Of a DNA stretch of 64,000 nucleotides, positions 13,660-50,814 are shown one piece after another. Made by a program: the position numbers and the translations under genes. Numbering within the stretch: position 1 is the stretch's first letter; each line of letters starts with the position of its first letter. Below the pieces are notes generated by a model. That model worked only from the letters and a program-made list of their open reading frames with translations, was not told the DNA's origin and ran no database searches. Origin of the DNA: Candidatus Omnitrophota bacterium (GTDB lineage: Bacteria > Omnitrophota > Gorgyraeia > Gorgyraeales > Gorgyraeaceae); the NCBI GenBank assembly GCA_018814825.1, contig JAHIYJ010000090.1, positions 1,321 to 65,320 on the forward strand, given 5' to 3'.

Positions 13660-15354
13660 ATGTCAGGGAAACAGAAAAAAGCTTTAGGTGAGAGCCTTGT
13701 GGAAGAGGGCATAATAACAGCTGAGCAGTTGAAACAGGCTAAGACAGAAGAAAAACGTTCGGGTCTCAGGTTAAGAAAAGCCCTCGTGAAAACAGGGTTG
13801 ATTACGGAAGAAGACCTTGTAATGTTTCTGAGCGGTAAGCTAGGTATACCACGGATAGAGCTAGGCAGTTATTTGATAGACTCTAAAGTAACGGAATTGG
13901 TGTCGGAGGATCTGGCGCGGAAATACGAGCTTATACCGATATTTAAAATAGGCAATCGTCTCACCTGCGCCATGGTCGATCCCTGGAATGTATTTGCCCT
14001 GGATGAGATAAGGCTCAAGACAAATTTGATTATAGAGCCTGCGGTGGCGACAGAGGCTGAGATAAAAAAGGCCCTGGATGAACATTATGGCGCGAAGGGG
14101 ACCATGGAAGACGTGATAAAGTCTATTGATGAGAAAGGCATTGGCGCAAAGGACGGAAAAGAAATAGACCTCAAGGAATTAGAGGGAATCGCTGAAGAGC
14201 CAGTAGTCATAAAATTGGTAAATCTGATTATAATGAAGGCTGTCCGCGAAGGCGCCAGCGATATCCATATAGAGCCCGAAGAGGATACGCTAAAGACGAG
14301 ATTCAGGGTAGATGGCGTGTTACACGAGGTATCTGCCTCGCCTAAACATCTTCAATCAGCAATTATTTCAAGGATTAAGATAATGGCGAATCTGGACATA
14401 GCGGAGAGGAGGGCGCCTCAGGACGGCAGGTTCACGCTCAAGATGGAAGGCAGGGAGATCGATATACGGGTTTCCTGTATGCCTACCATATATGGAGAGA
14501 ATGTCGTATTGCGAATATTGGATGTATCGAGTGCCCTATTGGACTTCAAAGATACGGGTTTTTCAGAAGATATTTTAGAAAAATATCAGAAACTTATTTT
14601 TCATCCGCATGGCATGATATTGGTCACTGGACCGACAGGATGCGGGAAAACTACCACGCTTTATGTCTCATTGGACAAAATAAATACAGTTGAGAAGAAT
14701 ATTATAACTATTGAAGATCCCGTTGAGTATAAACTATCTGGTATAAGGCAAATGCAGGTGAATCCCAAGGTAGATCTGACGTTTGCCAATGGTTTGAGGT
14801 CGATGTTAAGACAGGATCCTGACGTGATAATGGTAGGCGAGATCAGAGATTTCCAGACAGCAGAGATAGCGATTCACGCTGCCCTGACCGGGCATCTGGT
14901 CTTTTCCACGCTCCACACGAATGACGCGGCAGGGGCATTAACGAGGATGATTGATATGGGTGTCGAGCCGTTTCTTGTCTCCTCTTCCCTAATTGCTGTC
15001 TTGGCGCAGAGGCTTGTGAGGACTATCTGTAAGGATTGCAAAGAAGAATATACCCCGACAGAGGAAACCATGCGAGACATCGGCCTTCTCGACGAGCGAC
15101 GAATAAAATTCTATCGCGGCAAAGGCTGTTCCAAATGCATGAATACAGGCTATAAAGGCAGGATCGGGATATTTGAGTTGATGCCAATAGATGAGAATAT
15201 ACGCAAACTGACTATAGCCAGAGCGCCGCATGATGAGGTCAAAAAACAGGCTATAGCCTCAGGCATGATAACGCTGAAACAGGACGGCATTAAAAAGGTA
15301 AAAGAAGGTATTACTACTGTTGAAGAGATGCTTCGCGTGATCCAGGAGGAGTAA
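13660..15354 (+). CDS. pilB: Type II/IV filament assembly ATPase (GspE/PilB family), copy 1
   Basis: N-terminal T2SSE_N-like domain. Walker A GPTGCGKTTT and a C-terminal tetracysteine motif (CKDC..CSKC). 564 aa. Confidence 0.9.
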   Translation: MSGKQKKALGESLVEEGIITAEQLKQAKTEEKRSGLRLRKALVKTGLITEEDLVMFLSGKLGIPRIELGSYLIDSKVTELVSEDLARKYELIPIFKIGNRLTCAMVDPWNVFALDEIRLKTNLIIEPAVATEAEIKKALDEHYGAKGTMEDVIKSIDEKGIGAKDGKEIDLKELEGIAEEPVVIKLVNLIIMKAVREGASDIHIEPEEDTLKTRFRVDGVLHEVSASPKHLQSAIISRIKIMANLDIAERRAPQDGRFTLKMEGREIDIRVSCMPTIYGENVVLRILDVSSALLDFKDTGFSEDILEKYQKLIFHPHGMILVTGPTGCGKTTTLYVSLDKINTVEKNIITIEDPVEYKLSGIRQMQVNPKVDLTFANGLRSMLRQDPDVIMVGEIRDFQTAEIAIHAALTGHLVFSTLHTNDAAGALTRMIDMGVEPFLVSSSLIAVLAQRLVRTICKDCKEEYTPTEETMRDIGLLDERRIKFYRGKGCSKCMNTGYKGRIGIFELMPIDENIRKLTIARAPHDEVKKQAIASGMITLKQDGIKKVKEGITTVEEMLRVIQEE

Positions 15355-15420
15355 CCTTATCGTTTACCGTGTACCGTTTACCGCACGAGACGGTACACGG
15401 TAAACTGTAAGCGAAACACG
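15355..15420. repeat. Heptamer-periodic hairpin (CGTTTAC/CGTGTAC units; 15-bp stem TTTACCGTGTACCGT / ACGGTACACGGTAAA)
   Basis: The sequence reads cgtttaccgtgtaccgtttaccgcacgagacggtacacggtaaactgtaagcgaaacacgg, lying between pilB and pilC. Confidence 0.65.
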
Positions 15421-15431
15421 GAGGTTTTAAG

Positions 15432-16646
15432 TTGCCTACTTACATTTATAAAGCCAGGGATGCCACAGGTAAGTTAGTGAAAGGCACCATGGACGCGTCC
15501 AATAGAGACGAACTTACAGAGAAACTCCAAAGAATGGGGTATATGACTACCTATGCCGCGGAGATCACTCCCGGAGTCAGGGTCGAATCTATATTTGAAA
15601 GGATGAGGAGGATAAGCGCCGAGGACATGATAATATTTAATGTCCAGCTCGCCAATATGATAAATTCAGGTATACCTATTCTGGTCTGCCTGGATACGCT
15701 GGATAAACAGATTGAAAACAGGACGCTGAGGATCACCGTCGGTAATGTGAAGAGAAATCTTGAGTCAGGCGACAGCTTCTCTCAGGCCCTGGCGAGGCAC
15801 CCGCGGGTATTCTCCAAGTTATTTATAAATATGGTAAAGACCGGTGAGGCCAGCGGAAAGCTGGATACTGTTTTGACCGGGTTTGCTGAATTTACTGAAC
15901 GACAGGAAGAGTTAAAGCAGAAGATTAAAGGTGCGCTTTTTTACCCGATCATACTTTTATTCGCCGGTATCGCGGTCACGATTTTCATAGTTACTTTTAT
16001 TATCCCTCAGTTTGCCGAGATTTTCATGAAGGTAGGCATAAAATTACCCGCGCCTACATTGATCCTTTATAGGATTGGGACGGCCATCAAGAGTTACTGG
16101 TATTTAATAGGCCTTTTTTTTGCGGTAACATGCATAGGCGTAAAATATTATATAAGGACAGAAAAAGGTAGATTTAATTTTGATAGACTTAAATTAAAAG
16201 CACCTGTGCTTGGCCCATTGTTTCGTAAAGTGGCGATATCGAGATTTGCCAGGACATTGGCGACGCTTGTCTCAAGCGGTGTTTCTATATTGGTATCACT
16301 GGATATTACAAAGGAGGTAATTGGGAATGAAGTACTGAGTCGTGTTATTACAAATGTCCGCGCTTCTGTTGAGAAAGGAGAAGGCATTGCCGAGAGCCTG
16401 AAGATAAGCGGGGAATTCCCCCAGGATACAGTGCAGATGATCTCGGTAGGAGAGGAGACAGGAAATTTAGAGGGCATGCTGAATAAGATCTCGGATTTTT
16501 ACAATATGTCTTTAGGATACACCATAAAAAAGTTGACTACTATAATAGAGCCTTTATTTTTGGTCATCATGGGGAGCATGGTGGGTTTTATCATGGCGTC
16601 GATGCTTTTACCGATGTTTGACATGATGAAGGTATTGAGACATTGA
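15432..16646 (+). CDS. pilC: Inner-membrane platform protein (GspF/PilC family), copy 1
   Basis: Apparent TTG start after GGAGG. MPTYIYKARDATGK.. plus two T2SSF repeats. 404 aa. Confidence 0.85.
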   Translation: MPTYIYKARDATGKLVKGTMDASNRDELTEKLQRMGYMTTYAAEITPGVRVESIFERMRRISAEDMIIFNVQLANMINSGIPILVCLDTLDKQIENRTLRITVGNVKRNLESGDSFSQALARHPRVFSKLFINMVKTGEASGKLDTVLTGFAEFTERQEELKQKIKGALFYPIILLFAGIAVTIFIVTFIIPQFAEIFMKVGIKLPAPTLILYRIGTAIKSYWYLIGLFFAVTCIGVKYYIRTEKGRFNFDRLKLKAPVLGPLFRKVAISRFARTLATLVSSGVSILVSLDITKEVIGNEVLSRVITNVRASVEKGEGIAESLKISGEFPQDTVQMISVGEETGNLEGMLNKISDFYNMSLGYTIKKLTTIIEPLFLVIMGSMVGFIMASMLLPMFDMMKVLRH

Positions 16647-16686
16647 TCTCGTATATCGTATGTAGTATGTCGTATATAGTATATCG
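16647..16686. repeat. Heptamer tandem repeat (TCGTATA/TCGTATG units), forward orientation
   Basis: The sequence reads tctcgtatatcgtatgtagtatgtcgtatatagtatatcg, immediately after the pilC stop. Confidence 0.65.
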
Positions 16687-16725
16687 TTTTTCATTGAACA
16701 CTGAATGCAAAAAAAGGGGGTGGTT

Positions 16726-17175
16726 ATGAGAAAAGGTTTTACACTAATTGAGCTATTGATAGTCATTGCGGTGATATCTATCCTGATCGGGATCGCTCTC
16801 CCGCGTTTTAAGGGGATGCAGGATGAAGGAAATATTGCCAAAGCAAAGGGAGAATTAAAAACGCTTCAAGTCGCAGTAGAGAGTTATTATATCCATAATA
16901 ATAATACCTATCCAGCCACAGGTTCTGCAGCGCTTGAGACAGCATTAGCCAGCGCCACCCCTAGCATCATAACTTCTGTGCCTACGGATCCTTTTCGTTC
17001 TACCGGGGCGGATTATGTATATGTAAGAGGTGGTACAAACGGCAAATACTATATTATTTATTCTGTGGGGCCGGGCGGCAATGGAAGCGCGTCTATATCG
17101 AGCAATGCAGTCAGCGAGACGAATGGCTCGAGCTGCATCTATGTCTCTAATATGGGGGAGGATGTACAGCCATAA
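16726..17175 (+). CDS. gspG: Major pseudopilin / type IV pilin, GspG-like (short MRKG leader, class III signal)
   Basis: MRKG|FTLIELLIVIAVISILIGIALP, then ..YP..LP/VPTDPF..YYIIYSVGPGGNG, which resembles the GspG C-terminal signature. The ATG at 16726 follows GGGGGTGG. The listed ORF starts earlier, at 16705. Confidence 0.65.
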   Translation: MRKGFTLIELLIVIAVISILIGIALPRFKGMQDEGNIAKAKGELKTLQVAVESYYIHNNNTYPATGSAALETALASATPSIITSVPTDPFRSTGADYVYVRGGTNGKYYIIYSVGPGGNGSASISSNAVSETNGSSCIYVSNMGEDVQP

Positions 17176-17210
17176 CTCGTATGTAGTATGTCGTACATAG
17201 CATATCGTAA
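17176..17210. repeat. Heptamer tandem repeat (forward type), left flank of the four-helix-bundle gene
   Basis: The sequence reads ctcgtatgtagtatgtcgtacatagcatatcgtaa. Confidence 0.6.
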
Positions 17211-17211
17211 T

Positions 17212-17574
17212 ATGGATAAGAAGATCAGAAGTTTTAAGGATTTGAAAATTTGGCGAAAAGGTATAGAGATTGTCAAAGATACTTACGGGCTAACAGAGAG
17301 CTTTCCAGATAAAGAATTATATGGTTTAACGTCTCAGATGAGAAAGGCAGCTGTATCTCTGCCGTCAAATATAGCTGAAGGATTTAAAAGGTATCATAAT
17401 AAAGAATATAAGCAATTTTTACATATAGCCTTAGGATCAGCGGCAGAATTGGAAACACAGTTTATAATAGCACAAGAGCTTGACTATATTAACAAGGAAG
17501 AACTCGAAAATATCTCAGAAAAGTTAGATCATCTTTCAAAGATGATAACTGCCTTAATACATAAGTTAAGATAA
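17212..17574 (+). CDS. Four-helix-bundle protein (23S rRNA intervening-sequence protein family, PF05635-like)
   Basis: FPDKELYGLTSQMRKAAVSLPSNIAEGFKR is the hallmark motif of this family. About 120 aa. It lies between inverted copies of the heptamer repeat. Confidence 0.75.
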   Translation: MDKKIRSFKDLKIWRKGIEIVKDTYGLTESFPDKELYGLTSQMRKAAVSLPSNIAEGFKRYHNKEYKQFLHIALGSAAELETQFIIAQELDYINKEELENISEKLDHLSKMITALIHKLR

Positions 17575-17963
17575 TGACATGCCTACGATATACGATATAC
17601 GATATACGATATACGAAATGTGGGTTCACTCTACTCGAGATCCTGATTACCATCATCATCCTCACAATAGGCGTGGTTACATTGACCAGCGCTTTTAGTT
17701 CAGGGCTCTTCGCCACTACCGATGTTGAGAATGTGGATCTGGCATTAAATATTGCGCAGGCAAAGATGGAGCAGATCAAGAATACAGCCTTTGCCAGTTT
17801 AGTTGACAGCGGGCCTACTGCTGATGCGAATTTCTCGAACTTTAACGTAACCGTAGATGTGGCCGAGGGCGATGATCCTATGCAGGTGGATGTTACAGTT
17901 AGTTGGAATGTTAAAGGCGGCTCGCCGAGCATTACGTTGACGACGCTGGTCGTTGATTACTGA
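17574..17963 (+). CDS. Minor pseudopilin, GspI/PilV-like; the predicted leader MTCLRYTIYDIRYTKCG is encoded by heptamer repeats
   Basis: The prepilin motif G|FTLLEILITIIILTIGVV is followed by ALNIAQAKMEQIKN. The only in-frame ATG upstream of the cleavage site is 17574, which overlaps the TAA of the previous gene as TAATG. Confidence 0.6.
   Translation: MTCLRYTIYDIRYTKCGFTLLEILITIIILTIGVVTLTSAFSSGLFATTDVENVDLALNIAQAKMEQIKNTAFASLVDSGPTADANFSNFNVTVDVAEGDDPMQVDVTVSWNVKGGSPSITLTTLVVDY
17583..17610. repeat. (CGATATA)n heptamer repeat, reverse orientation, inside the 5' coding end of the GspI-like gene
   Basis: The sequence reads cctacgatatacgatatacgatatacgaa. Confidence 0.65.
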
Positions 17964-17964
17964 T

Positions 17965-17985
17965 TATCGTATATAGTATATCGTA
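17965..17985. repeat. Heptamer repeat, forward type (TCGTATATAGTATATCG)
   Basis: Nearly the reverse complement of 18044..18060, with one mismatch. Confidence 0.6.
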
Positions 17986-17987
17986 AA

Positions 17988-18590
17988 ATGCAAAACCATA
18001 ATTCAAAACTAGGATTATTAAACCCCCAATTTTTACCCAAAAAGCGATATACGATATACGACATACGACATACGAAACAAGGTTTAACTCTCATTGAGCT
18101 AATGATAACAATCGCGATGTTCAGTATTCTGGCAGTAGTTACCGTATATATATTTCGAGCGGTTTTATTAAGCTGGTCAAGTCAGGAGACAAGGGCAGGG
18201 ATTGATATAGTCCTTGATAGAGGCATAGAAGAGATGGTGCGGGATTTAAGAGAGGCAAAAGAGATTCAATCCACTGGCGGTTATGACGAGATAAGATTTT
18301 CACAGGACCAGAGCACTTATTATATCTACTACCTTTATAATGCCAGAGATTCTTATGCTCCTCCGCCAGCCTTTGACCAGACTGTATACGAATTGAGGAA
18401 AGCGGTTTTAACAGGAGATATAAACGGAAGTTTTACGTATGGCTCAGGCCAGATTATAATAACCGATGTCCTTCCTCCTGCTGTTTCTGATTTGTCCTTG
18501 AGTGGTAATATAGTGGCTATTGACCTGAGTGTTGCCAGGGGCGATGAAGCGATTCGCTCGAGGACCGAAGTGATGCCGAGAAATCTTTGA
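17988..18590 (+). CDS. Minor pseudopilin, GspJ/PilW-like; long repeat-containing leader
   Basis: ..KKRYTIYDIRHTKQG|LTLIELMITIAMFSILAVV. The leader segment MQNHNSKLGLLNPQFLPKK is paralogous to the one in the next gene. Confidence 0.55.
   Translation: MQNHNSKLGLLNPQFLPKKRYTIYDIRHTKQGLTLIELMITIAMFSILAVVTVYIFRAVLLSWSSQETRAGIDIVLDRGIEEMVRDLREAKEIQSTGGYDEIRFSQDQSTYYIYYLYNARDSYAPPPAFDQTVYELRKAVLTGDINGSFTYGSGQIIITDVLPPAVSDLSLSGNIVAIDLSVARGDEAIRSRTEVMPRNL
18044..18078. repeat. (CGATATA/CGACATA)n heptamer repeat, reverse orientation, in-frame within the leader
   Basis: The sequence reads gcgatatacgatatacgacatacgacatacgaaac. Confidence 0.65.
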
Positions 18591-18629
18591 TTCGTATATA
18601 GCATATCGTATGTAGTATATTGTAAAATG
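18591..18629. repeat. Heptamer repeat, forward type
   Basis: The sequence reads ttcgtatatagcatatcgtatgtagtatattgtaaaatg. Confidence 0.6.
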
Positions 18630-19766
18630 ATAGACAAAAACTTAAAACCAGGATTTTTAAACAAATCTTTTTTACTACCAAACGATATACGATATACGAC
18701 ATACGATATACGAAACATGCGATATGCGAAACGAGGCTCTGTCCTGATCATGACTTTCATAATCATGGCAACTCTTATTTCTATAACTTTAGGCTTTTTA
18801 TTTATGATGTCTATACAGCTTAAAGGTTCGGGATATGATGTGGCGAGTTCAAAGGCCCTCTGGCTGGCTGAGGCGGGATTGCAGAAGGTTATTTATCAGA
18901 TCAAAAATAGCTCTAGTTTTAGAGATAATCCGACTACCATAACCGGAAATTTAGAAAATGGGGGTTATTCTGTGAGTGTGAGTAAAAATGGAATCACATA
19001 CTCGCTTAGCTCAACCGGGACAGAATCTGACATATCGAGAACAGTAGAGTTGGATGCAGTTGTCAGCTCAAATGGAGGTAGTTATCCCGATGGCGCCCCT
19101 GAGGCATTTAATTATGCCATGCATTCTTTTGGCAATCACATCAAGTTCAAAGATTCCGAGGGCACTATTAACGGAAATGTGGCCTCGGCCAACAGTGTGC
19201 AAAATTCAGGCGATCCAACGATAAACGGCATCGTAACCAGTAATTCCACCGTACCCACGCCTTTTACGGTTAATATGGCTGGTTATCAGTCTATAGCCGA
19301 TAACGTTGAGAGCAGTAATTATACTTTTACGGAAGGTAATACCTATGGCTCCTCTGGCAGCGAACAAATTTGGTATGTGCAGGGGAATGTTACGATAGAA
19401 GAAAATGTTGCTATCTATGGCACAGTTGTTGCTGAGCATAATGTCACTTTGGGCAGTGAAGATATAACAATCGATGCAGCATCTGGTTACCCCGCTCTCA
19501 TCGCAGGCAATAATATTAGCGGAGATGGATTAGAAAATAGTGCTATAAATGGGTTGATTGCCGCAGAAAACAATATTGATTTTGATAACATCAAAGATGC
19601 TACTATCAATGGGGCAATACTCGCCGGCAATAATATAACTATGAGAGATGGCGAAGATTTTACAGTTAATTACGACTCAGATATAACATCCAATCCGCCC
19701 CCATATTTTAGCGGCTATGGGGGCACTACTACTGTTACGACACAGGGTTGGAATGAGATTACATGA
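18627..19766 (+). CDS. Minor pseudopilin, GspK/PilX-like (PilX_N-like N-terminus, no Glu5), with a large N/G/T-rich C-terminal domain
   Basis: ..RYAKRGSVLIMTFIIMATLISITLGFLFMM..ALWLAEAGLQKV is PilX/GspK-type. An alternative internal start is ATG ~18717 (MRYAKRG..). Confidence 0.55.
   Translation: MIDKNLKPGFLNKSFLLPNDIRYTTYDIRNMRYAKRGSVLIMTFIIMATLISITLGFLFMMSIQLKGSGYDVASSKALWLAEAGLQKVIYQIKNSSSFRDNPTTITGNLENGGYSVSVSKNGITYSLSSTGTESDISRTVELDAVVSSNGGSYPDGAPEAFNYAMHSFGNHIKFKDSEGTINGNVASANSVQNSGDPTINGIVTSNSTVPTPFTVNMAGYQSIADNVESSNYTFTEGNTYGSSGSEQIWYVQGNVTIEENVAIYGTVVAEHNVTLGSEDITIDAASGYPALIAGNNISGDGLENSAINGLIAAENNIDFDNIKDATINGAILAGNNITMRDGEDFTVNYDSDITSNPPPYFSGYGGTTTVTTQGWNEIT
18683..18733. repeat. 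(CGATATA)n heptamer repeat, reverse orientation, 7 units
   Basis: The units read cgatata|cgatata|cgacata|cgatata|cgaaaca|tgcgata|tgcgaaa. Confidence 0.65.
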
Positions 19767-19845: not shown

Positions 19846-21438
19846 ATGAATGTAAGAGGGGTTTTTCAGAAAGATTACATAGTAGGGCTGGACATCGGAT
19901 CTTCTTCTATAAAATTGGCCAAATTTTTGAAAACTCCGGACGGTTTATGTCTTATAAAGACCGATATAGAAGAGGTTAGCAGCTATGCAGTTGATGAGGC
20001 CTTGCGCGGGAAAGAAATACAAAGTCTTCTAAAAAAAATTACCAGAGGGGTAGATGTAAGCAACTCTAAATTTATTGTCACTATCAATTGTCCCAAGACC
20101 GCCATAAAAAAAGCGATAGTGCCTTATATGCCAAGGACAGAATTGCGTAATGCCATAAGATTGGCGGTAAAGAATTATTTCCCGTTTCCAATAGACGACT
20201 CCTTGGTAGATTTTGAGATATCGGGCGAGGTGATTGAAAAAGGTGTTAAAAAATTTGAGGTCCTGGTCGCGACCTCCCCTAAAAAGACAGTTAACGAATT
20301 TTTATCTATATTGAAGGAAGCAGGTGTAAAACCAGTTTCATTCATTGCCGTTCCTTATGCGATGCAAAGATTAGCCCATGCATTTTATCCTGGCGAGGGC
20401 CAGACAAGGTGTTTTCTTGATATAGGCAGTTGTCATACAGAATTGGTTATATTAAAAGGAAAGGGCCTGGTTTTTTCCCGTAAGATCCCTGTTGCAGGCA
20501 ATGATATTACTAAAGAGATGACAGGAGTTTTGGTCTCGGACAAGGGCAGGACAGAGCTTTCATTGGACGAGGCTGAAAAAATAAAGCGGAAAATAGGGCT
20601 ACCTCCTGAAGGCGAATCAAAGATGATAAATGACAAGATTTCCACGACTCAAATTTTATCTATGATAAGGATGCCTTTGGAGCAATTAGTAAATGAGATA
20701 GAAAGATGTTTTGATTATTACAGGGAAGAGGCGGAAGGCGGAAAGATAGATTCGTTTGTTCTATTAGGCGGAGGCTCTTCTCTCAGGAGACTTACGGATT
20801 TTCTTTCTAAGGAATTAGGAATAGAAGTAAAGTTGTTAAGCTCCCTCGAGGGTATAAAAATTGAGCCTGGGGCAATAGACGGACGCGCGCCCGAACTACA
20901 TAGATTAGCCCTGGCTATAGGCGCGGGTTTAGGTGGGGTAAAGGGGCTTAATCTGCTGCCCCTGGAAATTAAAGAAGAGACGAAAAAAACCTTTAAACGA
21001 GCGGGCATTCAGGCCGTGGTTACAGGGGTTATTATTACTCTGGCCCTTGTCTATATCGGGATGAGAATACAGGTTACGAGTTTTCAGAAAAGGATCGCGG
21101 CCAGCAGGATAGAGATGTTAAGTTTAAAGCCCCAGATGGAACAGGTCAAGGCGCAGAATTTGACAAGCGAGATATTGCGAAATGAGCCATACTGGGAAGA
21201 CGTGTTTAGGGAGTTGAGTAATATAGTTCCTGACGATAGCTATCTTACACAATTTACCATGAAGGACAAGACCTTTAAGATGCGAGGCGTGGTTATATCC
21301 AGTGCGCCTGAAGAGATCTTGTCTGGTTTTATACTTGCGCTTGAAAAGGGTATATTTAAGGACGTGAGGCTTATTAGCACAAAAGAGATCAGAGATACGA
21401 CCGGCAATGAATTTGAATTAGAATGTCGAATCGATTAA
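19846..21438 (+). CDS. PilM-PilN fusion (MshI-like): actin-like ATPase-fold domain + TM + PilN domain
   Basis: IVGLDIGSSSIKLAKF is the PilM N-terminus. The C-terminal third has a TM segment (AVVTGVIITLALVYIG) followed by a PilN-like periplasmic domain. 530 aa. Confidence 0.75.
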   Translation: MNVRGVFQKDYIVGLDIGSSSIKLAKFLKTPDGLCLIKTDIEEVSSYAVDEALRGKEIQSLLKKITRGVDVSNSKFIVTINCPKTAIKKAIVPYMPRTELRNAIRLAVKNYFPFPIDDSLVDFEISGEVIEKGVKKFEVLVATSPKKTVNEFLSILKEAGVKPVSFIAVPYAMQRLAHAFYPGEGQTRCFLDIGSCHTELVILKGKGLVFSRKIPVAGNDITKEMTGVLVSDKGRTELSLDEAEKIKRKIGLPPEGESKMINDKISTTQILSMIRMPLEQLVNEIERCFDYYREEAEGGKIDSFVLLGGGSSLRRLTDFLSKELGIEVKLLSSLEGIKIEPGAIDGRAPELHRLALAIGAGLGGVKGLNLLPLEIKEETKKTFKRAGIQAVVTGVIITLALVYIGMRIQVTSFQKRIAASRIEMLSLKPQMEQVKAQNLTSEILRNEPYWEDVFRELSNIVPDDSYLTQFTMKDKTFKMRGVVISSAPEEILSGFILALEKGIFKDVRLISTKEIRDTTGNEFELECRID

Positions 21439-21448
21439 AGGGGCTGGG

Positions 21449-21958
21449 ATGGAACTTACTAAAGATAGAGCTGCGATAATTATAACGGGTGTGATTGCAG
21501 TAGTTACCTTGGGGGTATATCTATTTTTGTATAGGCCGGCTATTTCCAAATGCAGTGAGGCTGGTTGCGAGTGCAGGATGATTGAATCAGAAGTTTTAAG
21601 GGCCAGAGAGTCAATGTATCTTTTAAAACAGGATGCTGCGAAACGTGTATTCGTGTCAGAAAACAATATATCTGTTGCCATAGATGAGTTGACGAAACAA
21701 GGCAGGTCTAAAGGCATTAATTTTACCTCTATTACCCCGGGAAAAATCGAGAATCCTGGAGATGTCGGGTATAAGATCCTTCCTATAGACATGGAGATAG
21801 AGTCAACTTATAAGGAATTGGCGGTATTTCTGGGTTTACTGGAAGGGCTGAAGGAGAGCCTTGTTACAGTAAAGGATATTGATATTGCCTCCGAAGAGAT
21901 AAGAAGCGCAAAACTAAGGGCCAGATTGATACTGAATATGTATCTTTCATACCAATAG
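21449..21958 (+). CDS. pilO: PilO/GspM-like inner-membrane assembly protein
   Basis: N-terminal TM plus coiled-coil. Size and position match PilO (169 aa). Confidence 0.5.
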   Translation: MELTKDRAAIIITGVIAVVTLGVYLFLYRPAISKCSEAGCECRMIESEVLRARESMYLLKQDAAKRVFVSENNISVAIDELTKQGRSKGINFTSITPGKIENPGDVGYKILPIDMEIESTYKELAVFLGLLEGLKESLVTVKDIDIASEEIRSAKLRARLILNMYLSYQ

Positions 21959-37264: not shown

Positions 37265-37265
37265 T

Positions 37266-38114: not shown

Positions 38115-38118
38115 GGCT

Positions 38119-38147: not shown

Positions 38148-38290
38148 TATATATATGATGAGTAACTAAATACTGAGAAAAGAGGTTATTTTTATCTAGA
38201 TATTTTATGTTTTTTAAAATAGCAAATAAAGTCTTGACACACAATAGTAGCTCTGTTACCATAAAAAGAAGACTATGGGAGGCATAAAAG

Positions 38291-42363: not shown

Positions 42364-42918
42364 ATGAATAACTTTAAAATTAAAGAGATAATTCTTGCTA
42401 CAGGGATTTCAATCATTGCCATTTCTATGACATATTACCTACTTTATGTGCCGAAGGCCAGGCAGATAGCAGGGCTTCAAAAGGAAACGAAAAGCTTTCA
42501 CGAAGACATAGAAGAAATGGAAAAGATGATTTGCCGCGTTCCTAATCCCAAGAAAGAAATAGAAGTCCTGGGAGAGAGGCTGCAAAAACTTAAAGAAAAG
42601 GCCACGGATAAAGAGCAGACTCCTCGGATCATACAGCAGTTATTTCAAAAAACAGGGGAATTGAATATAGAGGTTATTTCTATTAACCCGCGCGAAGAAA
42701 CAGGGGAGAGCTCCATAGATATACCTGAAGGGGTAGGCAAGATCTATGTTGAGATAAAGATACGTTGTTCATATAAAACCTTATTAGCATACATAGAGGC
42801 CTTAAATCACCTGCCTCTTTTATTTACGCTTGAGGATTTATCCATTGAAAAAGCTGGTAAAGAGGCATCAGAAAATGTAGAGGTCCTCTTGCTTTTGAGC
42901 GCCTATGTCATGGCTTAG
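42364..42918 (+). CDS. PilO/MshJ-like protein, copy 2
   Basis: TM anchor plus coiled-coil. 184 aa. Position follows the PilMN fusion. Confidence 0.5.
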   Translation: MNNFKIKEIILATGISIIAISMTYYLLYVPKARQIAGLQKETKSFHEDIEEMEKMICRVPNPKKEIEVLGERLQKLKEKATDKEQTPRIIQQLFQKTGELNIEVISINPREETGESSIDIPEGVGKIYVEIKIRCSYKTLLAYIEALNHLPLLFTLEDLSIEKAGKEASENVEVLLLLSAYVMA

Positions 42919-42930: not shown

Positions 42931-43428
42931 ATGACGTTAGATAAAAGCAGGAAACAATTAATTATTACAGGGATACTTGTCCTGGCGCTGGTATTCATCA
43001 GCATTAATACCTTTTCAAATTCAAAGAAAGGAAAGAGAGAGAAGGCAAAAAAACAAAACGCGAGAGTTTCAATAACCCAGGAGGCCCCAAGTGGAGGGTC
43101 AGGGGATATATCTGTTCAGAAAACTGCTATGGAGGGTTTTGCGCCACTGGATCATAGAACAATTCAATTGCAACTTGTCAGAATAGCAGAAGAGGAGCCT
43201 ATAAAAGATCCATTTTATCCGATGGAGAAAAAAGAAACATTTAAAAGAGGTTCTATAGTCTTAAAGGGGATTTCCTGGAAGGAAAAGGCCCCGTCATTTG
43301 CAATTATAAACGAACAAATTATAAAAGTAGGCGATAGCGTAGGAGATAGCAAGGTTATGCGTATCGAGGAAAAGTCAGTTGTGCTAGAAAAAGACAATCG
43401 GGAATATATCCTGGTTCTGGAGGAATAA
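42931..43428 (+). CDS. PilP/MshK-like protein, copy 2
   Basis: TM anchor and a C-terminal beta domain (GDSKVMRIEEKSVVLEKDNREYILVL). Confidence 0.45.
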   Translation: MTLDKSRKQLIITGILVLALVFISINTFSNSKKGKREKAKKQNARVSITQEAPSGGSGDISVQKTAMEGFAPLDHRTIQLQLVRIAEEEPIKDPFYPMEKKETFKRGSIVLKGISWKEKAPSFAIINEQIIKVGDSVGDSKVMRIEEKSVVLEKDNREYILVLEE

Positions 43429-43429: not shown

Positions 43430-44866
43430 ATGAGAAAATTACCTGTTATATTGTTGTTTTTTTTCCTGATCTTTTACTTTTCTTCAGAAGTTTTTCCCCA
43501 GGAGGACAAAGATTTTATATCGGTTGATTTCAGGGATACCGAAATTGGTGATGCCTTGAGACTTTTGTCTAAACAGCACAACTTGAATATCATTATCTCA
43601 GAATACGTAAAAGGGCCGATAACTGCGCAGTTTTCCAATGTTACTGTGCAGGAGGCAATAGACGCAATCGTTACTATTAATGGGTATGCTTATACTAAAC
43701 GCGGTAATGTGATAAAGGTTACTTCTCCAGAGGCAGCTGAGCTTGAACCGGCTGTCACGCGCCTATTTAAGTTAAACAATGCCACGGCATCAGAGCTCAA
43801 AGAGTCGTTTGCAAAGGTGTTATCCGAGACAGGTAATATCGAGATAGATGAGCGTTCTAATGCTCTCATAGTCACTGATAACTCTAAGGTTATAGAGAAG
43901 ATTCAGGAATTGATTGAAGGATTGGATGGAATTACCCCTCAGATAATGATAGAGGCCAAGGTTATAGAGACAATCTTGTCAGATTCTGATAGACTGGGTA
44001 TCGACTGGACAACGCAGATAACCGCCACGGGCGCTAATCGGCCTACAACATTTCCTTTTGACAGGAAGTCACAAGGCGGCAGGTGGTTTCCGGTAGGCGA
44101 CGCAACAGCTGATGCAGGTGATAACGCAGGCACATTTCCGCCTGATCCAGCCACAGGCTTTCCCCTGGCATTGCCATCAAATTTTACCTTAGGTTCTCTT
44201 GATTTTACCCAGCTTCAGGCAGTGCTCGAGATACTGGAGTCAAGGTCTAACACAACCACCCTTTCTAATCCAAAGATCGTTACTATGAATAACAAAGAGG
44301 CGAGTGTATTGGTAGGAACGCGTATGCCGATTCCTATATATGAGCGCAATGAAGCAACAGGGACATTTGAGATCACTGGTTACGATGAAGAGAAAGTAGG
44401 TGTATCCCTGAAGGTGGTCCCTCAGGTTAATTCACAGGGTTATATAAAACTTAAATTATCTCCAGAGGTCAGTTCTATTACCAGCTATACAGGCCCCAAT
44501 AATGAGCGCCCTATTATTTCTACGCGCCAGGCGCAAACCGAAGTCCAGATCAAGGATGGGCACACAGTTGTCATTGGAGGCCTGATCAAAGAAGAAAATA
44601 TCAAGACAGTAAGAAGGGTGCCTATCTTGGGACACATACCTATCCTTAGCTTACTATTTAAAAAGACAGAAGATACTAAAGGTAAAACTGATTTGCTTAT
44701 TTTTGTTACAGCCCATATTATTTCTGAAGATAAAGCCAAGAGTTTCACCCAGGAGGCTATTTATAAATCAAAACGGCCGGATCTCTTTCCAGAAGAAAAA
44801 CAGAAAAAGAATCTTAAGCCGAAAAAAGAAACAACAGAGGCAAAATCGTATAAACCATTGAAATAA
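43430..44866 (+). CDS. pilQ: Secretin (PilQ/MshL/GspD family)
   Basis: Signal peptide. The N-terminal domain ISVDFRDTEIGDALRLLSK..NIII is MshL/PilQ-like. The C-terminal secretin core is GGLIKEENIKTVRRVPILGHIPILSLLFKK..DLLIFVTAHII. 478 aa. Confidence 0.8.
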   Translation: MRKLPVILLFFFLIFYFSSEVFPQEDKDFISVDFRDTEIGDALRLLSKQHNLNIIISEYVKGPITAQFSNVTVQEAIDAIVTINGYAYTKRGNVIKVTSPEAAELEPAVTRLFKLNNATASELKESFAKVLSETGNIEIDERSNALIVTDNSKVIEKIQELIEGLDGITPQIMIEAKVIETILSDSDRLGIDWTTQITATGANRPTTFPFDRKSQGGRWFPVGDATADAGDNAGTFPPDPATGFPLALPSNFTLGSLDFTQLQAVLEILESRSNTTTLSNPKIVTMNNKEASVLVGTRMPIPIYERNEATGTFEITGYDEEKVGVSLKVVPQVNSQGYIKLKLSPEVSSITSYTGPNNERPIISTRQAQTEVQIKDGHTVVIGGLIKEENIKTVRRVPILGHIPILSLLFKKTEDTKGKTDLLIFVTAHIISEDKAKSFTQEAIYKSKRPDLFPEEKQKKNLKPKKETTEAKSYKPLK

Positions 44867-46923: not shown

Positions 46924-48762
46924 ATGGAAGACACAGAGCTGATACAGGAACTTACTTCACAGGGGCTGCTTACTGCGGAACAGTTACAAAAAGCTGAGGC
47001 AGAGGCGACTAAGAGAAGGGTATCTCTTGCGCAGACAATCCTGGATTTGAAACTTGTCAGCAAAGAGGATTTTTATGGCATTATAGCGCAAGAGAAAGAG
47101 ATTATCTATGTAGATCTTGATACTTACCAGCCTGATGCAAACCTTAAAGAGTCTATTCCCGAAGAACTCTGCAGGGCCCATATTTTCTTCCCGATTTTTA
47201 AAATCAAGGAAACCTTAACCATAGCTACTCCAGATCCTCTGAATCTTATGATGTTGGACCAGATAGGTATGAAGATAAGCTTGCAGGTAGAGTGCGTTTA
47301 TAGCCCGGAACATGAGGTCTTAAGGGCAATAGATAGATATTACGGGAAGAAGGATTCTACCCAGGAATTGATTGAAAAGATGGGTGAGGTCTCTCTATCG
47401 CAATCAGGTACAGGCGTTTCTGCTGAAATAACAGCAGAATCGCCGATTGCCAAATTAGTAGATCTTATAATCACTCAGGCAGCCCGCGACCGCGCAAGTG
47501 ATGTTCATATTGAACCTGAAGTGGATTTCTTGCGTGTCCGTTTCCGTATTGATGGTATACTGCACGAGATCCCTTCTCCGCCGAAACACCTGGAATTAGC
47601 TATCATATCTCGGATAAAAGTCTTGTCTGGCATGGATATTGCTGAGAGCCGTGCCCCTCAAGACGGGCATTTTCAGATAGACGTAGACAATCGGGTGATT
47701 GATCTGCGTGTCTCAAGTTTTCCTACTGTAAATGGAGAGAATATAGTAATGCGTCTTTTAGACACAGGAGGTGTTCTTGCCGGGCTGGAGAAAATGGGTT
47801 TTGGTAAAGAGGCGTTAAGGAAATATGAGGAAGTTATTTTGAGTCCTTACGGGATAATTTTAAGCACCGGACCAACTGGCTCAGGTAAAACAACTACTTT
47901 ATATTCTGCTTTGATGCGGATCAACTCTGTAGATAGAAAGATTGTCACGATTGAAGATCCTGTAGAGTATCGTATTGGTCTGATTCGTCAGACGCAGGTA
48001 AATCCCAGAGCAGGACTTACCTTTGCCAATGGTTTGCGTTCTATCTTAAGGCAGGATCCGGATGTTATAATGGTTGGGGAAATCAGAGATTTGGAAACGG
48101 CAGTAATTGCTATACAGGCGGCTCTTACAGGGCATCTTGTTTTCTCTACTCTTCATACGAATGATGCGGCATCCTCCATTACCCGTTTAATCAATATGGG
48201 AGTAGAGCCTTTTCTTATCTCTGCTTCCTTGGCAGGTGTAATGGCGCAGCGTCTTATTCGTTTGATTTGTGAAGAATGCAAGGAGGCATACGAACCTTCC
48301 AAGTCCTTGGCGCAGAGATTAGGCTTGAGAAACAAAGGAAAGGTGCAATTCTTTAAGGGTAAAGGTTGCGGAAATTGCAAGGGTACAGGGTATAAAGGAC
48401 GCACCGGCATCTTTGAGCTCATGATCATGGATGATGAATTGAGAGAGATGGTTATTCAGGGTTCATCCGCACTCGCTATTAGAGAGAAGGCCTGCGAAAA
48501 AGGGATGAAACTTCTTCGCCAGGATGGTTTAGAAAAGGTGCTGGCAGGTTTAACTACCTGGGAAGAGGTTTCCAGGGTAACGGAAGAGAGATTGGATGTA
48601 AAGCCATCCATAGAGATATCGACGACACTAGAAAGAGTGGTGACAGTGCCGAAAGAGGAACCGCCGGTGTTCGAAACGACTAAGGCTGAAGTAAGAATAA
48701 AACCTGTAGAGGTCGAAGAATATCAGAAAAAGATCAGTAATTGGTTAGCCAGGAAGAAATGA
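46924..48762 (+). CDS. pilB: Type II/IV filament assembly ATPase (GspE/PilB/MshE family), copy 2
   Basis: Walker A GPTGSGKTTT. Tetracysteine motif (CEECK..CGNCKGTG). 612 aa with a C-terminal extension. Confidence 0.9.
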   Translation: MEDTELIQELTSQGLLTAEQLQKAEAEATKRRVSLAQTILDLKLVSKEDFYGIIAQEKEIIYVDLDTYQPDANLKESIPEELCRAHIFFPIFKIKETLTIATPDPLNLMMLDQIGMKISLQVECVYSPEHEVLRAIDRYYGKKDSTQELIEKMGEVSLSQSGTGVSAEITAESPIAKLVDLIITQAARDRASDVHIEPEVDFLRVRFRIDGILHEIPSPPKHLELAIISRIKVLSGMDIAESRAPQDGHFQIDVDNRVIDLRVSSFPTVNGENIVMRLLDTGGVLAGLEKMGFGKEALRKYEEVILSPYGIILSTGPTGSGKTTTLYSALMRINSVDRKIVTIEDPVEYRIGLIRQTQVNPRAGLTFANGLRSILRQDPDVIMVGEIRDLETAVIAIQAALTGHLVFSTLHTNDAASSITRLINMGVEPFLISASLAGVMAQRLIRLICEECKEAYEPSKSLAQRLGLRNKGKVQFFKGKGCGNCKGTGYKGRTGIFELMIMDDELREMVIQGSSALAIREKACEKGMKLLRQDGLEKVLAGLTTWEEVSRVTEERLDVKPSIEISTTLERVVTVPKEEPPVFETTKAEVRIKPVEVEEYQKKISNWLARKK

Positions 48763-48772: not shown

Positions 48773-49588
48773 ATGTATGAAAAATATTGGAAACTAGACG
48801 TTAAGCCTTTTAGCAATACCCCTGATCCTAGATTTCTTTACCTATCCAGCCAGCATGAAGATGTCATGATGAAGCTTAGTTATTGTATTGTGGAAAAGAT
48901 GGGTGCAGGGCTTTTGACTGGCGTATTTGGCTGCGGAAAGACGCTTCTGGGTAAGGCCATTTTAAAAGAGCTGGGGGAGGATAAATATAAGGCCGTCTTT
49001 ATTAATAATCCTCAGGTGACATACGTGGAACTGTTGCGGGCGATTGTGCGGAATTTGAAATCCAGTGCCTTGCCTTCTCGCGCTGATGAGCTGCTGGCCG
49101 ACCCGCTTTTAGAAACATTGCATAATATCTTATTGGATAACATGCGGGATGGCAAAGAAACCGTGATCATTATTGATGAGGCACATATTATTCAGGATGA
49201 AAGAATATTCGAGGAATTAAGGCTGTTGCTTAATTTCCAGCTAGAAGACCGGTTTTTGCTTACCCTTATACTTTCTGGCCAGCCAGAGCTTAAAAATAAG
49301 ATTGCAGATTTGAGGCAGTTTGAGCAACGGATTGCCATTTGTTGTCACTTGGATGCCTTGAGCGAAAAGGATACTCAGGAATATGTACTTCATCGGATAA
49401 AAATTGCTGGCGGGAAAAACAATATTTTTACCCTTGATGCAATAAAATTTATCCATGACCGCAGCGGAGGTATTCCCAGGCGCATAAATCGCATGTGCGA
49501 TCTGGCGCTTCTGACAGGTTTTGGCAAGAAGTTGACCAAGATCGATAAAGATGTGATAAAACAGGTTGGAGAAGATTTTGGAGTTTAA
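48773..49588 (+). CDS. ExeA/GspA/MshM-like AAA ATPase
   Basis: ..FSNTPDPRFLYLSSQHEDVMMKL.. with the P-loop GVFGCGKTLL. 271 aa. Confidence 0.65.
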   Translation: MYEKYWKLDVKPFSNTPDPRFLYLSSQHEDVMMKLSYCIVEKMGAGLLTGVFGCGKTLLGKAILKELGEDKYKAVFINNPQVTYVELLRAIVRNLKSSALPSRADELLADPLLETLHNILLDNMRDGKETVIIIDEAHIIQDERIFEELRLLLNFQLEDRFLLTLILSGQPELKNKIADLRQFEQRIAICCHLDALSEKDTQEYVLHRIKIAGGKNNIFTLDAIKFIHDRSGGIPRRINRMCDLALLTGFGKKLTKIDKDVIKQVGEDFGV

Positions 49589-49590
49589 AG

Positions 49591-50814
49591 ATGCCCACAT
49601 ATAAGTATAAAGCGCAGAACATGGAAGGTAAAATAGTCACAGGATCCATTGTTGCCCCTCGCGAGACAGTAGTAACTGCACGTCTGGATAAACAAGGTTA
49701 TTTACCTCTCTCTATCACCTTAGAGAAGGAACTCATCATTGACTTTAAAGCTTTCTTTAAGCCGCGAGAAAAGGTAAAGATGCGAGATCTAGTTACCTTT
49801 ACGCGGCAATTCGCTACTATTGTTAAAGCAGGCGTACCCATACTTACAGGTTTAAAAGCACTTTCCGAGCAGTCAGAGACCCCTGTATTTGCAAAGGTTT
49901 TAAAGAATATTGGGCAGGATATTGAAGGAGGCTCAAGCCTGTCTCAGGCAATTGATAAGCACCCTAATATATTTTCAGAGCTTTATGTAAACTCTGTGGT
50001 TGCTGGTGAGGCTGGGGGTGTTCTGGACAAGGTGTTATTGCGTTTGGCTGAGATGATGGAGCGTGATATGGAAACCGCTACTGATGTCAAAACTGCTATG
50101 CGTTATCCCGTATTGACAGTTTTTGCAATGATTATCGCTTCTTTTGTTTTGGTGATTTTTGTTGTTCCAAATTTCTCATCAATGTATGCGCGTTTCGAAA
50201 CACAACTCCCGCTTCCCACAAGGATTCTAATTGCCGCTAATTATTTTATCACTCGTCTCTGGTATATAGGCATCCCTTCATTGATAGCTGCCGGGTATGG
50301 TTTCTACCGTTTTATCAATACAAAGATCGGAAGATGGCAATTCGATAGCCTCAAGTTAAAGTTGCCGGTCTTTGGCAAGCTTTTTACCAAGGTAGCTATG
50401 CTGAGGTTTGCTACTATGCTCAATGTATTGAATGAAAGCGGCCTTCCTATATTAAGGACATTAGAGATAGTCTCTATTACCATTGGCAATGTTGTTATCG
50501 GAAAAGAGGTTGAAAACATGCGCCAGAGTGTGGCTGACGGGAGAGGTATCTCTGGCTCTATGATGAAAAGTAAGATATTTCCTCCTCTTATGGGGCACAT
50601 GGTTGCCATCGGAGAGAAGACAGGGGCGCTTTTAGATATGCTAAATGCCATTTCAGAATACTATGATTTAGAGATCAAATCAACGGTCAAGAATCTTACC
50701 ACTCTGATTGAGCCGATGATGACCGCCATACTGGGTATGGTTGTCCTGGGCATGGCCCTGGCCATATTTTTACCGCTCTGGAATATGATTAAATTATTCA
50801 GAGGGGCGGCTTAA
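49591..50814 (+). CDS. pilC: Inner-membrane platform protein (GspF/PilC/MshG family), copy 2
   Basis: MPTYKYKAQNMEGKIVTGS. 407 aa. Paralog of 15432..16646. Confidence 0.85.
   Translation: MPTYKYKAQNMEGKIVTGSIVAPRETVVTARLDKQGYLPLSITLEKELIIDFKAFFKPREKVKMRDLVTFTRQFATIVKAGVPILTGLKALSEQSETPVFAKVLKNIGQDIEGGSSLSQAIDKHPNIFSELYVNSVVAGEAGGVLDKVLLRLAEMMERDMETATDVKTAMRYPVLTVFAMIIASFVLVIFVVPNFSSMYARFETQLPLPTRILIAANYFITRLWYIGIPSLIAAGYGFYRFINTKIGRWQFDSLKLKLPVFGKLFTKVAMLRFATMLNVLNESGLPILRTLEIVSITIGNVVIGKEVENMRQSVADGRGISGSMMKSKIFPPLMGHMVAIGEKTGALLDMLNAISEYYDLEIKSTVKNLTTLIEPMMTAILGMVVLGMALAIFLPLWNMIKLFRGAA

Follow-up and report, generated by a model that had tools for sequence, protein, structure and literature searches.

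Two sets of type IV filament genes, probably separate machines, in a genomic locus of Candidatus Omnitrophota

Do two neighbouring sets of type IV filament genes encode one machine or two, and through which secretin would each of them work? This question is raised by 64,000 nucleotides of contig JAHIYJ010000090.1 (assembly GCA_018814825.1) from a Candidatus Omnitrophota bacterium, a stretch that we call the window. Omnitrophota are uncultured nano-sized bacteria that are suspected to be predatory or parasitic, and pili and secretion machines are central to such hypotheses. A first-pass annotation of the window, made from the letters alone, had described two paralogous assembly sets with PilM-PilN fusions and a single secretin. 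This gene list was reproduced almost exactly by Pfam/NCBIfam models and a six-frame tblastn search: ATPases of the PilB/GspE type, PilC/GspF platforms and PilM-PilN fusions each occur twice and a secretin once, and PilO and PilP-like partners accompany each fusion. We consider it likely that two type IV filament machines are encoded in the window, independent of each other and of ancient divergence, and that both are standard in Omnitrophota. Judged by sequence, set 1 appears to be a hybrid of a type IVa pilus (T4aP)-type PilM/PilN platform with a GspG-type major subunit, and set 2 appears to resemble the mannose-sensitive haemagglutinin (MSHA) pilus in repertoire and order without being a member of that family.

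Relationship of the two gene sets

Set 1 comprises the genes below. Two of them had been missed in the earlier inventory, the 23S-rRNA-IVS-protein gene (IVS, intervening sequence) and the PilZ gene that follows P1.

13660-15354, + strand: E1, PilB/GspE-family ATPase (Pfam T2SSE 471.8 bits, MshEN 78 bits)
15432-16646, + strand: F1, PilC/GspF platform (T2SSF 200 bits)
16705-17175, + strand: G1, GspG-type major (pseudo)pilin (Pfam T2SSG, N_methyl)
17188-17574, + strand: 23S-rRNA-IVS-protein, a four-helix bundle (PF05635, 135.9 bits)
17574-17963, + strand: m1a, minor pseudopilin, GspI/PilV-like (N_methyl; weak sub-threshold NCBIfam match)
17988-18590, + strand: m1b, minor pseudopilin, GspJ-like (N_methyl; weak sub-threshold NCBIfam match)
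18627-19766, + strand: m1c, minor pseudopilin with GspK/PilX-like N-terminus (N_methyl; weak sub-threshold NCBIfam match)
19846-21438, + strand: MN1, PilM-PilN fusion (Pfam PilM_2 and PilN)
21449-21958, + strand: O1, PilO (Pfam PilO)
22059-22490, + strand: P1, small bitopic PilP/GspC-HR-like protein (weak GspC-HR (GspC_delta) match, paralogy to P2)
22605-23360, + strand: protein with a transmembrane segment and a C-terminal PilZ domain (PilZ 49.9 bits)

The span given for the earlier finding as a whole stopped at 50814, ahead of the last set 2 gene that the same annotation named, which ends at 53024; we use the longer span.

36258-36782, + strand: GspH/FimU-like minor pilin (Pfam, NCBIfam)
36779-37264 and 37242-37757, + strand: minor-pilin block (N_methyl in the second; Pfam, NCBIfam)
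37761-38114, + strand: 117-amino-acid protein with GspK/PilX-like N-terminus (Pfam, NCBIfam)
38291-39868, + strand: 525-amino-acid secreted charged protein
40005-40265, + strand: small transmembrane protein
40374-40631, + strand: MerR-type regulator (Pfam)
40628-42361, + strand: MN2, PilM-PilN fusion (Pfam, NCBIfam)
42364-42918, + strand: O2, PilO (Pfam)
42931-43428, + strand: P2, PilP/GspC-HR-like protein (weak Pfam and NCBIfam support)
43430-44866, + strand: SEC2, secretin of 478 amino acids with N0/STN, N1 and secretin domains (Secretin 163.8 bits)
from 44894, + strand: coiled-coil/TPR protein (Pfam)
from 46222, + strand: small membrane protein
from 46547, + strand: response regulator (Pfam)
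46924-48762, + strand: E2, second ATPase (Pfam, NCBIfam; PilB 606.4, cut-off 675.65)
48773-49588, + strand: ExeA/MshM-like AAA (AAA_22) ATPase (Pfam, NCBIfam)
49591-50814, + strand: F2, second platform (Pfam, NCBIfam)
50841-53024, + strand: 727-amino-acid TPR protein (Pfam)

The lack of a secretin and of a GspH-like gene in set 1, noticed before, was borne out by Pfam and NCBIfam; no secretin was found between 11312 and 23360, and the sole secretin of the window is the one at 43430. The six-frame tblastn of the window returned two T2SSE-type ATPases, two platforms and one secretin only; a GspO-like prepilin peptidase, PilT and a third T2SSE-type ATPase were not found in it. PilT and the prepilin peptidase may be located elsewhere in the genome.

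The two sets could be recent tandem duplicates of one T4aP system, as they lie on the same strand, contain the same component types and both have PilM-PilN fusions. We regard this as almost certainly wrong. E1 and E2 are 49% identical, F1 and F2 37%, and MN1 and MN2 28%; the gene orders differ; and in other species the orthologs of each set (50-84% identical) lie at separate loci. Clusters of MN1 orthologs with an identity of at least 50% number more than 120, and nearly all of these bear an Omnitrophota label; for E2 the count is also above 120, at 54% or more. We also compared the window with loci of other genomes, designated here by L-numbers. A scan with the MN1 alignment, keeping one genome per species, gave 80 loci, and 56 of them have the operon [kinase/response regulators]-E1-F1-G1-m1a-m1b-m1c-MN1-O1-P1. 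For set 2, the loci L090 (E2 84% identical), L084 and L092 keep the order MerR-MN2-O2-P2-secretin-TPR-x-response regulator-E2-ExeA-F2-TPR(-PilZ-CHASE2/PP2C).

An ATPase phylogeny, which the first-pass annotation had proposed as a check, gave no tandem-duplicate grouping and put E1 and E2 in separate families. The tree was built from 379 columns of the ATPase core by neighbour joining (NJ) with 100 bootstraps. Its references were E. coli GspE and HofB, A. caviae MshE and, derived from the PDB, Geobacter and Myxococcus PilB, Thermus PilF and the GspE proteins of V. cholerae and V. vulnificus. Three Omnitrophota families were seen, E1 (57/100), E2 (100/100) and E3 (98/100), which are 59-61% identical to one another, 50-52% to the GspE/PilB references and 45-47% to MshE. 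The bipartitions joining E1 to ATPases of type II secretion systems (T2SS), MshE to E2 and MshE to E1 were each recovered in 0/100 bootstraps. Both E1 and E2 lie nearest Thermus PilF, not Geobacter or Myxococcus PilB, with weak support (53-56%). Neither E1 nor E2 is a canonical GspE or MshE. The MshE reference came from the MSHA locus L093, on an A. caviae chromosome filed in PLSDB; this entry (NZ_AP026896.1) is labelled 'plasmid pKAM479_3' and is a 4.9-Mb Aeromonas caviae chromosome.

Recent duplication was therefore rejected on the identities, the differing gene orders, the E2 clade and the separate orthologous loci, in agreement with the earlier view of the sets as paralogous. We also rejected a single composite machine, because each set has its own ATPase, platform and MN, O and P genes and because the two stand apart in other genomes.

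Composition of set 1

Most components of the set 1 platform resemble those of T4aP. MN1 consists of an actin-like PilM domain, the motif NLLP at residue 369, a transmembrane segment at about 386-410 and a PilN domain. NLLP is the PilN peptide that binds PilM, and the motif is invariant just ahead of the transmembrane segment of MN1. An AlphaFold2 (AF2) model of MN1 (predicted local distance difference test score, pLDDT, 81) gave as best Foldseek matches the PilM:PilN complexes 5eou and 2ych (TM score 0.78-0.82 on the target), followed by FtsA and MreB; GspL was absent from the top 50 matches. The pilM model TIGR01175 scored 137.5 and 144.9 for the two fusions, above its cut-off of 133. The MN1, O1 and P1 families compared with E. 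coli GspL, GspM and GspC gave hhalign probabilities of 0.5% or less. P1 had no Pfam match, and its C-terminal domain is 38% identical to that of P2 over 53 amino acids. Proteins of this class contact the N0 domains of the secretin in characterised systems. P1 is kept in 34 of 38 set 1 loci, and O1 is likewise conserved.

The E1 ATPase has a Walker A motif and two CxxC motifs. Its NCBIfam scores were 667.1 for PilB (cut-off 675.65) and 641.7 for GspE (cut-off 630), and the PilC and GspF models scored F1 about equally. E1 passes the curated model of the MshE-type cyclic di-GMP (c-di-GMP) motif (52.8 versus a cut-off of 38) and E2 fails it. The MshEN-type N-domain of E1 thus probably binds c-di-GMP.

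The major subunit is of another kind. G1 scored 34.6 bits with Pfam T2SSG (cut-off 21) and 62.7 with the NCBIfam GspG equivalog, below its cut-off of 88.9. In hhalign the G1 family matched E. coli GspG at 98.7% over residues 8-129 against 6-131, whereas the T4a pilin PpdD matched it only over the N-terminal 60 residues. BLASTP gave 30% identity between G1 and GspG over residues 9-125, an alignment that includes the signature PxDP(W/F)...Y...G.Y...S.GP.G. G1 carries a single Cys and therefore has no disulfide. For m1a, m1b and m1c, hhalign matches were confined to the N-terminal regions.

Median identities across 38 species were 71% for E1, 63% for G1 (53% for its globular part), 59% for F1, 48% for MN1, 40% for P1 and 35% for O1, which makes the conservation of G1 second only to that of the ATPase among set 1 components. 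Such conservation fits a filament free of surface-antigen pressure, for example an endopilus or a pilus under functional constraint. It is no proof of secretion, as G1 is also matched (residues 12-116) by PilA4, a surface pilin of Thermus. Whether the G1 filament would be a short secretion endopilus or a surface pilus we judge to be about evenly balanced.

Compared with T4aP (Pil of P. aeruginosa and M. xanthus; PilF-PilC-PilMNOWQ and PilA4 of T. thermophilus), the systems here have in common a PilB-like ATPase with an MshEN-like N-domain and PilC. Set 1 adds the PilM fold, the PilN motif, PilO and a PilP-like protein; in both sets the Pfam matches to PilM_2, PilN and PilO exceed the cut-offs; the set 2 operon includes a secretin; and the window has PilS/PilR/sigma54 control of pilA. 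They differ from T4aP in that PilM and PilN are fused in both sets, the window contains neither PilT nor PilD, the set 1 operon lacks PilQ and has only three minor subunits, and G1 is far more conserved than typical surface pilins.

Set 1 had been called T2SS-like on the strength of the C-terminal signature of G1. Taken as a full account, this would have G1 form a short endopilus in the periplasm and drive folded exoproteins through a secretin, either its own or SEC2. We hold this to be a real possibility, somewhat short of even. G1 is a whole-length GspG homolog that lacks a disulfide, and its globular part is more conserved than MN1, P1 and O1, unlike fast-evolving surface pilins. In its order, E-F-G-minors-(L-like)-(M-like), the operon parallels gspE-M; its I/J/K-like minor subunits number only three, and the window has no PilT. 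According to published notes, giant secreted proteins of Omnitrophota are encoded beside T2SS/T4P genes, and the 7263-amino-acid ORF (open reading frame) of locus L095, described below, has such a context. By contrast, GspL, GspM and GspC are undetectable, and the platform has a genuine PilM and the motif of PilN; in no bootstrap (0/100) does E1 join GspE, and E2 lies outside the GspE clade as well; the operon has no GspD or GspH; GspF, GspG and GspD scores lie below the NCBIfam equivalog cut-offs; and the match of PilA4 means that a GspG-like subunit is not diagnostic of secretion. No candidate cargo was identified. The part of the T2SS-like label that concerns G1 is thus upheld and the part that concerns the platform and the ATPase is not.

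A wider version of this idea is that set 1 represents a phylum-wide hybrid class in which a T4aP platform builds a GspG-type endopilus for general secretion in Omnitrophota, with the secretin encoded apart and maybe shared with a pilus. We think this quite unlikely as a whole. Under it, the cargo may include the giant surface or secreted proteins of putative predators. If set 1 were indeed a secretion machine on a T4aP platform, it would bear on the origin of the T2SS from pili, and such a hybrid secretion system would stand between T4aP and the T2SS of proteobacteria as an evolutionary intermediate.

In the reading that we prefer, set 1 is the conserved 'type 1' operon of the phylum (response regulator(s), E1, F1, G1, three minors, PilM-PilN, PilO, PilP-like). 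Its T4aP-type inner-membrane alignment complex would polymerise the GspG-type subunit, the I/J/K-like tip set would prime polymerisation, and the motor would be an ATPase with a c-di-GMP-type MshEN domain, which suggests control by c-di-GMP.

Secretins and the genomic setting of set 1

We agree with the first-pass annotation that the window itself does not settle which secretin serves set 1. A secretin hidden Markov model built from all secretin matches was run on the 80 loci of the set 1 scan and found just 15 secretin ORFs. The secretin follows P1 in L004, L029, L038 and L048, precedes E1 in L046 and L047, is nearby in L045, and in the set 1-like locus L073 follows a PilO-like gene, so that 7-8 set 1-type species carry an adjacent secretin. 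Among the 15 loci with at least 8 kilobases (kb) of sequence downstream and at least 3 kb upstream, only one has a secretin, and the secretin is therefore unlinked as a rule. The complete genome CP070780.1 is one that carries a set 1 operon with no secretin next to it. The linked cases are mostly the deepest branches of the E1 clade, which suggests that linkage was ancestral and was later lost.

These data bear on the idea, raised before, that set 1 is a secretin-less machine, with a filament confined to the periplasm or built in monoderm style. No secretin lies in or beside the operon in the window or in most relatives. However, the host is a diderm with lipopolysaccharide (LPS), because kds, lpxL and lpt genes flank the locus; the PilP/GspC-HR-like P1 is conserved; and the adjacent secretins in 7-8 lineages, mostly deep in the E1 clade, make a secretin-less set 1 very unlikely. 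The set 1 type of machine clearly works with a secretin.

Alternatively, set 1 could borrow SEC2, so that two inner-membrane machines would share one outer-membrane channel. There is a single secretin in 64 kb and the sets are adjacent here, the similar C-terminal domains of P1 and P2 could both dock on one N0 domain, and 14 of the 15 well-flanked set 1 operons are unlinked to a secretin. Against this, in 7-8 set 1-type cases the operon has a secretin of its own next to it, in other genomes set 2 forms a self-contained module, and the adjacency of the two sets is lineage-specific, because set 1 abuts lpxL-lptC directly in close relatives. In L002 and L027 (MN1 67% and 63% identical), L068, L049, L050 and L041, the genes immediately after P1 are homologs of those in window 57576-63174, a region that from 57576 onward encodes lpxL, lptC, lptB, tig and clpP; in L068, pyrG-kdsA-kdsD-kdsC directly precedes set 1. 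Relative to these six loci the block 22605-57457 (PilZ, kinases, PilR, pilA, modification genes, set 2, PilZ, CHASE2-PP2C and rpoN) is an insertion or rearrangement. Omnitrophota genomes also commonly hold several secretins, including those of a very conserved family, SEC1. We therefore regard sharing of SEC2 as rather unlikely. The secretin of set 1, not encoded beside the operon, would most likely lie elsewhere in the genome and less likely be SEC2.

The SEC1 family (over 120 clusters with at least 51% identity) contains the secretins of a third system together with the one after P1 in L004; SEC2 is just 27% identical to it. This type 3 system has the order response regulator-E3-F3-pilA-minor pilins-MN-O-P-secretin-ExeA(-peptidoglycan-binding protein) and was found in L057-L066, L069, the second half of L015 and L094 (closed genome CP070684.1). 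In an NJ tree of secretins the deep branches are star-like, and no clean 'set 1 secretin' family can be assigned; SEC2 groups with the set 2-type secretin of L060.

Two type 3 or SEC1 loci have further features. The type 3 operon of L094 (CP070684.1 583208-604746) ends with a secretin, an ExeA-like ATPase, a small protein and PG_binding_1, and ComEA-like and ComEC genes lie about 6 kb downstream of it, after leuS. In L095 (CP070797.1 410780-432345) a giant ORF, called at 7263 amino acids and running off the locus, lies directly upstream of small genes of PilM/N/O/P-like type together with a secretin of the SEC1 family and an ExeA-like ATPase, a context that fits the published notes on giant Omnitrophota genes beside T2SS/T4P genes.

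Using TXSScan, Seymour et al. (2023, PMC10066038) detected T4aP clusters, often in more than one copy, in nearly all genomes of Omnitrophota, and the systems described here are of the kind reported there; in the available parts of that report neither the three ATPase families nor the GspG-type subunit nor the unlinked secretin is set apart. The window is a well-behaved and fairly ordinary example of known machinery. What is added to published work is the three ATPase families, the hybrid composition of set 1 as read from sequence, the usual unlinking of its secretin, and the lineage-specific union of the two modules in a 40-kb supercluster within the kds-lpt-rpoN region. Annotations in the phylum are sharpened by this: at least three distinct ATPase/platform families exist, and set 1, with its GspG-type subunit, is highly conserved and usually has an unlinked secretin.

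Set 2, pilA and the rest of the window

Set 2 had been described as an MSHA-type layout with an MshL-like secretin and an MshI-like fusion. The repertoire and order hold: the series PilP-like-secretin-TPR-ATPase-ExeA-like-platform, which in msh letters reads K-L-(N)-E-M-G, resembles mshK-L-M-N-E-G of A. caviae L093, MshEN domains are present in the window ATPases, the ExeA-like protein shares 32% identity with MshM and F2 34% with MshG, and TPR proteins stand at 44894 and 50841. Membership of the MSHA family does not hold. E2 is only 43-45% identical to MshE in the core, and the two were grouped in 0/100 bootstraps. SEC2 is 24% identical to Aeromonas MshL, and its NCBIfam score for MshL (TIGR02519) was 146.9 (cut-off 250.2), lower than those for GspD (258) and PilQ (251.6, cut-off 284), all three being below their cut-offs; the MshL-like label is thus not sustained. 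Neither an MN1 profile nor phmmer with MN2 found a match (E≤10) among the ORFs upstream of mshK in A. caviae, which leaves the MshI-like label without similarity to the mshI region. In set 2 the ExeA-like gene also lies between E2 and F2. The ExeA/GspA-like AAA ATPase is a point of likeness to the T2SS (Gsp/Pul/Eps), as is, for set 1, the order E-F-G-minor subunits-assembly platform. A comparison with the Akkermansia Amuc_1098-1102 system (Planctomycetes-Verrucomicrobia-Chlamydiae group) covered the Amuc_1101 and Amuc_1098 family models: both fusions match the Amuc_1101 PilM-like model (127 and 124 bits) and the secretin weakly matches the Amuc_1098 family, with scores far below the equivalog cut-offs (650 and 750).

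Some Omnitrophota have E2-ExeA fusion proteins (P0177, 1030 amino acids; P0213, 1014 amino acids). This Rosetta-stone link ties the ExeA-like ATPase functionally to E2, that is, the motor to the presumed secretin-assembly ATPase. The order MN2-O2-P2 is conserved in L084, L090, L091 and L092. A scan of Joint Genome Institute (JGI) metagenomes for MN2 yielded L084 as the single close relative, besides five loci of no relevance; MN2 evolves fast. The secreted 525-amino-acid protein is extremely rich in K, E, D and R, has no family match and follows the 117-amino-acid protein after a gap of 176 bp; proteins of similar size (545 and 100 amino acids) occupy positions in L091 equivalent to window 37761-39868.

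Between the sets lie regulators, pilA and a group of modification genes.

23495-26029, + strand: PAS histidine kinase (Pfam)
26052-27110, + strand: HAMP histidine kinase (Pfam)
27113-28486, + strand: PilR-like sigma54 enhancer-binding response regulator (Pfam)
28680-28695, + strand: sigma54 promoter TGGCACGATTTTTGCT (exact -24/-12 match)
28717-29061, + strand: pilA, short type IV pilin of 114 amino acids with 2 Cys (N_methyl match)
29156-36165, + strand: modification module with a PMT_2-like membrane glycosyltransferase (weak), 2 TPR proteins, a family 2 glycosyltransferase (GT2), two B12-binding radical S-adenosylmethionine (SAM) enzymes and a SAM methyltransferase (Pfam)

The PilS/PilR-sigma54-pilA module reported earlier is real: there are kinases and a PilR-like regulator, and the exact sigma54 promoter precedes pilA. 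The genes at 29156-36165 are probably a pilin-modification module, and a PMT-like gene recurs beside pilA in type 3 loci. The methyltransferase ORF (35386-36165, TTG start) overlaps the radical-SAM gene at 34067-35494 by about 110 bp; its true start is probably downstream of 35386, because the Methyltransf_11 domain begins at residue 90.

Judged by synteny, pilA is the probable major pilin of set 2. In L091 an H-like minor-pilin block precedes an MN2-type gene as in the window, with a further secretin/ATPase system after it, and in L015 and L094 pilA-like genes lie inside single-operon systems with H-like minor pilins. Because of this, set 2 is the machine most plausibly supplied by the H-like minor pilins and by pilA under sigma54/PilR control, and in this way we infer the pairing of each pilin with its machine. 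Set 2, pilA and the modification genes together would form a self-contained surface-pilus system with its own secretin, accompanied by ExeA/TPR-type helpers of secretin assembly.

Several points weigh against the interpretation of the window as two independent machines of these kinds. The assignment of pilA to set 2 draws on synteny in few loci, and in L015 and L094 similar pilins belong to the third ATPase family. The secretins linked to set 1 in L004, L029 and L038 resemble SEC1, the type 3 family (L094, L057, L059, L062, L066), and those of L046, L047 and L073 are about as close to SEC2; with such heterogeneous neighbours there is no single clear 'set 1 secretin' family. The set 1 secretin was not located in this metagenome-assembled genome (MAG): of 28 proteins considered after a search with the set 1-linked secretin of L004, none bore identifiers matching those of the window's MAGs (locus tags KKA34_/KKC66_, accessions MBU07599xx/MBU19330xx), most having no accession, and SEC2 sharing is possible to the degree given above. 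Having neither PilT nor a prepilin peptidase, neither machine is complete within the window. The AF2 model of G1 from a single sequence (pLDDT 47.8) is unusable. Finally, the trees are NJ trees with few references, and joint monophyly of the Omnitrophota ATPases is weak (22-56%).

The remaining features of the window are as follows.

1-11282, + strand: upstream flank with GT9 heptosyltransferases, kdsB-like, pyrG, kdsA, kdsD and kdsC
11312-12469, + strand: histidine kinase with a weak GGDEF domain (Pfam)
12482-12847, 12844-13215 and 13257-13643, + strand: single-domain response regulators (Pfam)
53187-54161, + strand: PilZ protein (Pfam)
54140-55921, + strand: CHASE2-PP2C phosphatase (Pfam)
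56132-57457, + strand: rpoN/sigma54 (Pfam)
56132-63174, + strand: downstream flank with rpoN, lpxL-like, lptC/A, lptB, tig and clpP

All substantial ORFs within 171-63174 are on the + strand. Homologs of the kinase and response regulators precede E1 in most set 1-type loci. The PilZ gene at 22605-23360 is lineage-specific, with a homolog only in L058. PilZ, CHASE2-PP2C and rpoN accompany set 2 in L090, where rpoN and kinases, in place of set 1, lie upstream of set 2. Rfam at gathering thresholds gave no match in the window, and no c-di-GMP riboswitch was found before the pilin genes. A sigma70 promoter and terminator scan of 22-41 kb did no better than shuffles.

The IVS-protein gene lies within the pseudopilin operon of set 1 and is bracketed by inverted arrays of tandem units of about 7 nucleotides (CGATATA-type) in window 16649-18713. 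The heptad repeat has 18 matches, all within 2 kb (0.02 expected), and no match in any other locus. There is a lone arm at 16649-16686, and two 'empty' hairpins lie at 17967-18075 and 18592-18713 (RNA fold z-scores -4.8 and -5.1). The + arms are translated within unusually long leader peptides of m1a, m1b and m1c (..RYTIYDIRYTK..G|FTLLE). Related IVS genes occur in L014 (7914-8264), L015 (5697-6059 and 18488-18778), L039 (5426-5788), L044 (5870-6238) and L058 (6880-7107). In related pilus operons, too, an inverted heptad-like repeat encloses each IVS gene that was found; the unit sequence of this repeat differs per genome, and the insertion points are between E and F, between G and a minor, and between F and pilA. 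The gene and its repeats look like an independently inserting hairpin cassette. We rejected the IVS protein as a pilus component because its gene sits at different positions in different genomes, each time within a hairpin of its own. A full-text literature search on the IVS-protein family names returned nothing evidently about such repeats.

E1 is identical to a protein on JAHJFG010000056.1 (GCA_018824945.1), and two near-identical MAGs carry the locus, with locus tags KKA34_ and, for GCA_018824945.1, KKC66_; NCBI lists the proteins under 'Candidatus Omnitrophica bacterium'. Several other contigs with clear Omnitrophota set 1 operons, L003, L004, L008, L009 and L015 among them, are titled Planctomycetia, Scalindua or Pseudomonadota, which are probably binning or taxonomy errors. 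Lastly, set 1 is embedded in an LPS cluster that is a split form of the classic kdsD-kdsC-lptC-lptA-lptB-rpoN neighbourhood: kdsB-pyrG-kdsA-kdsD-kdsC stands on one side of set 1 and lpxL-lptC/A-lptB on the other, with rpoN nearby, and the split arrangement is kept in several species (L068, L002, L027).

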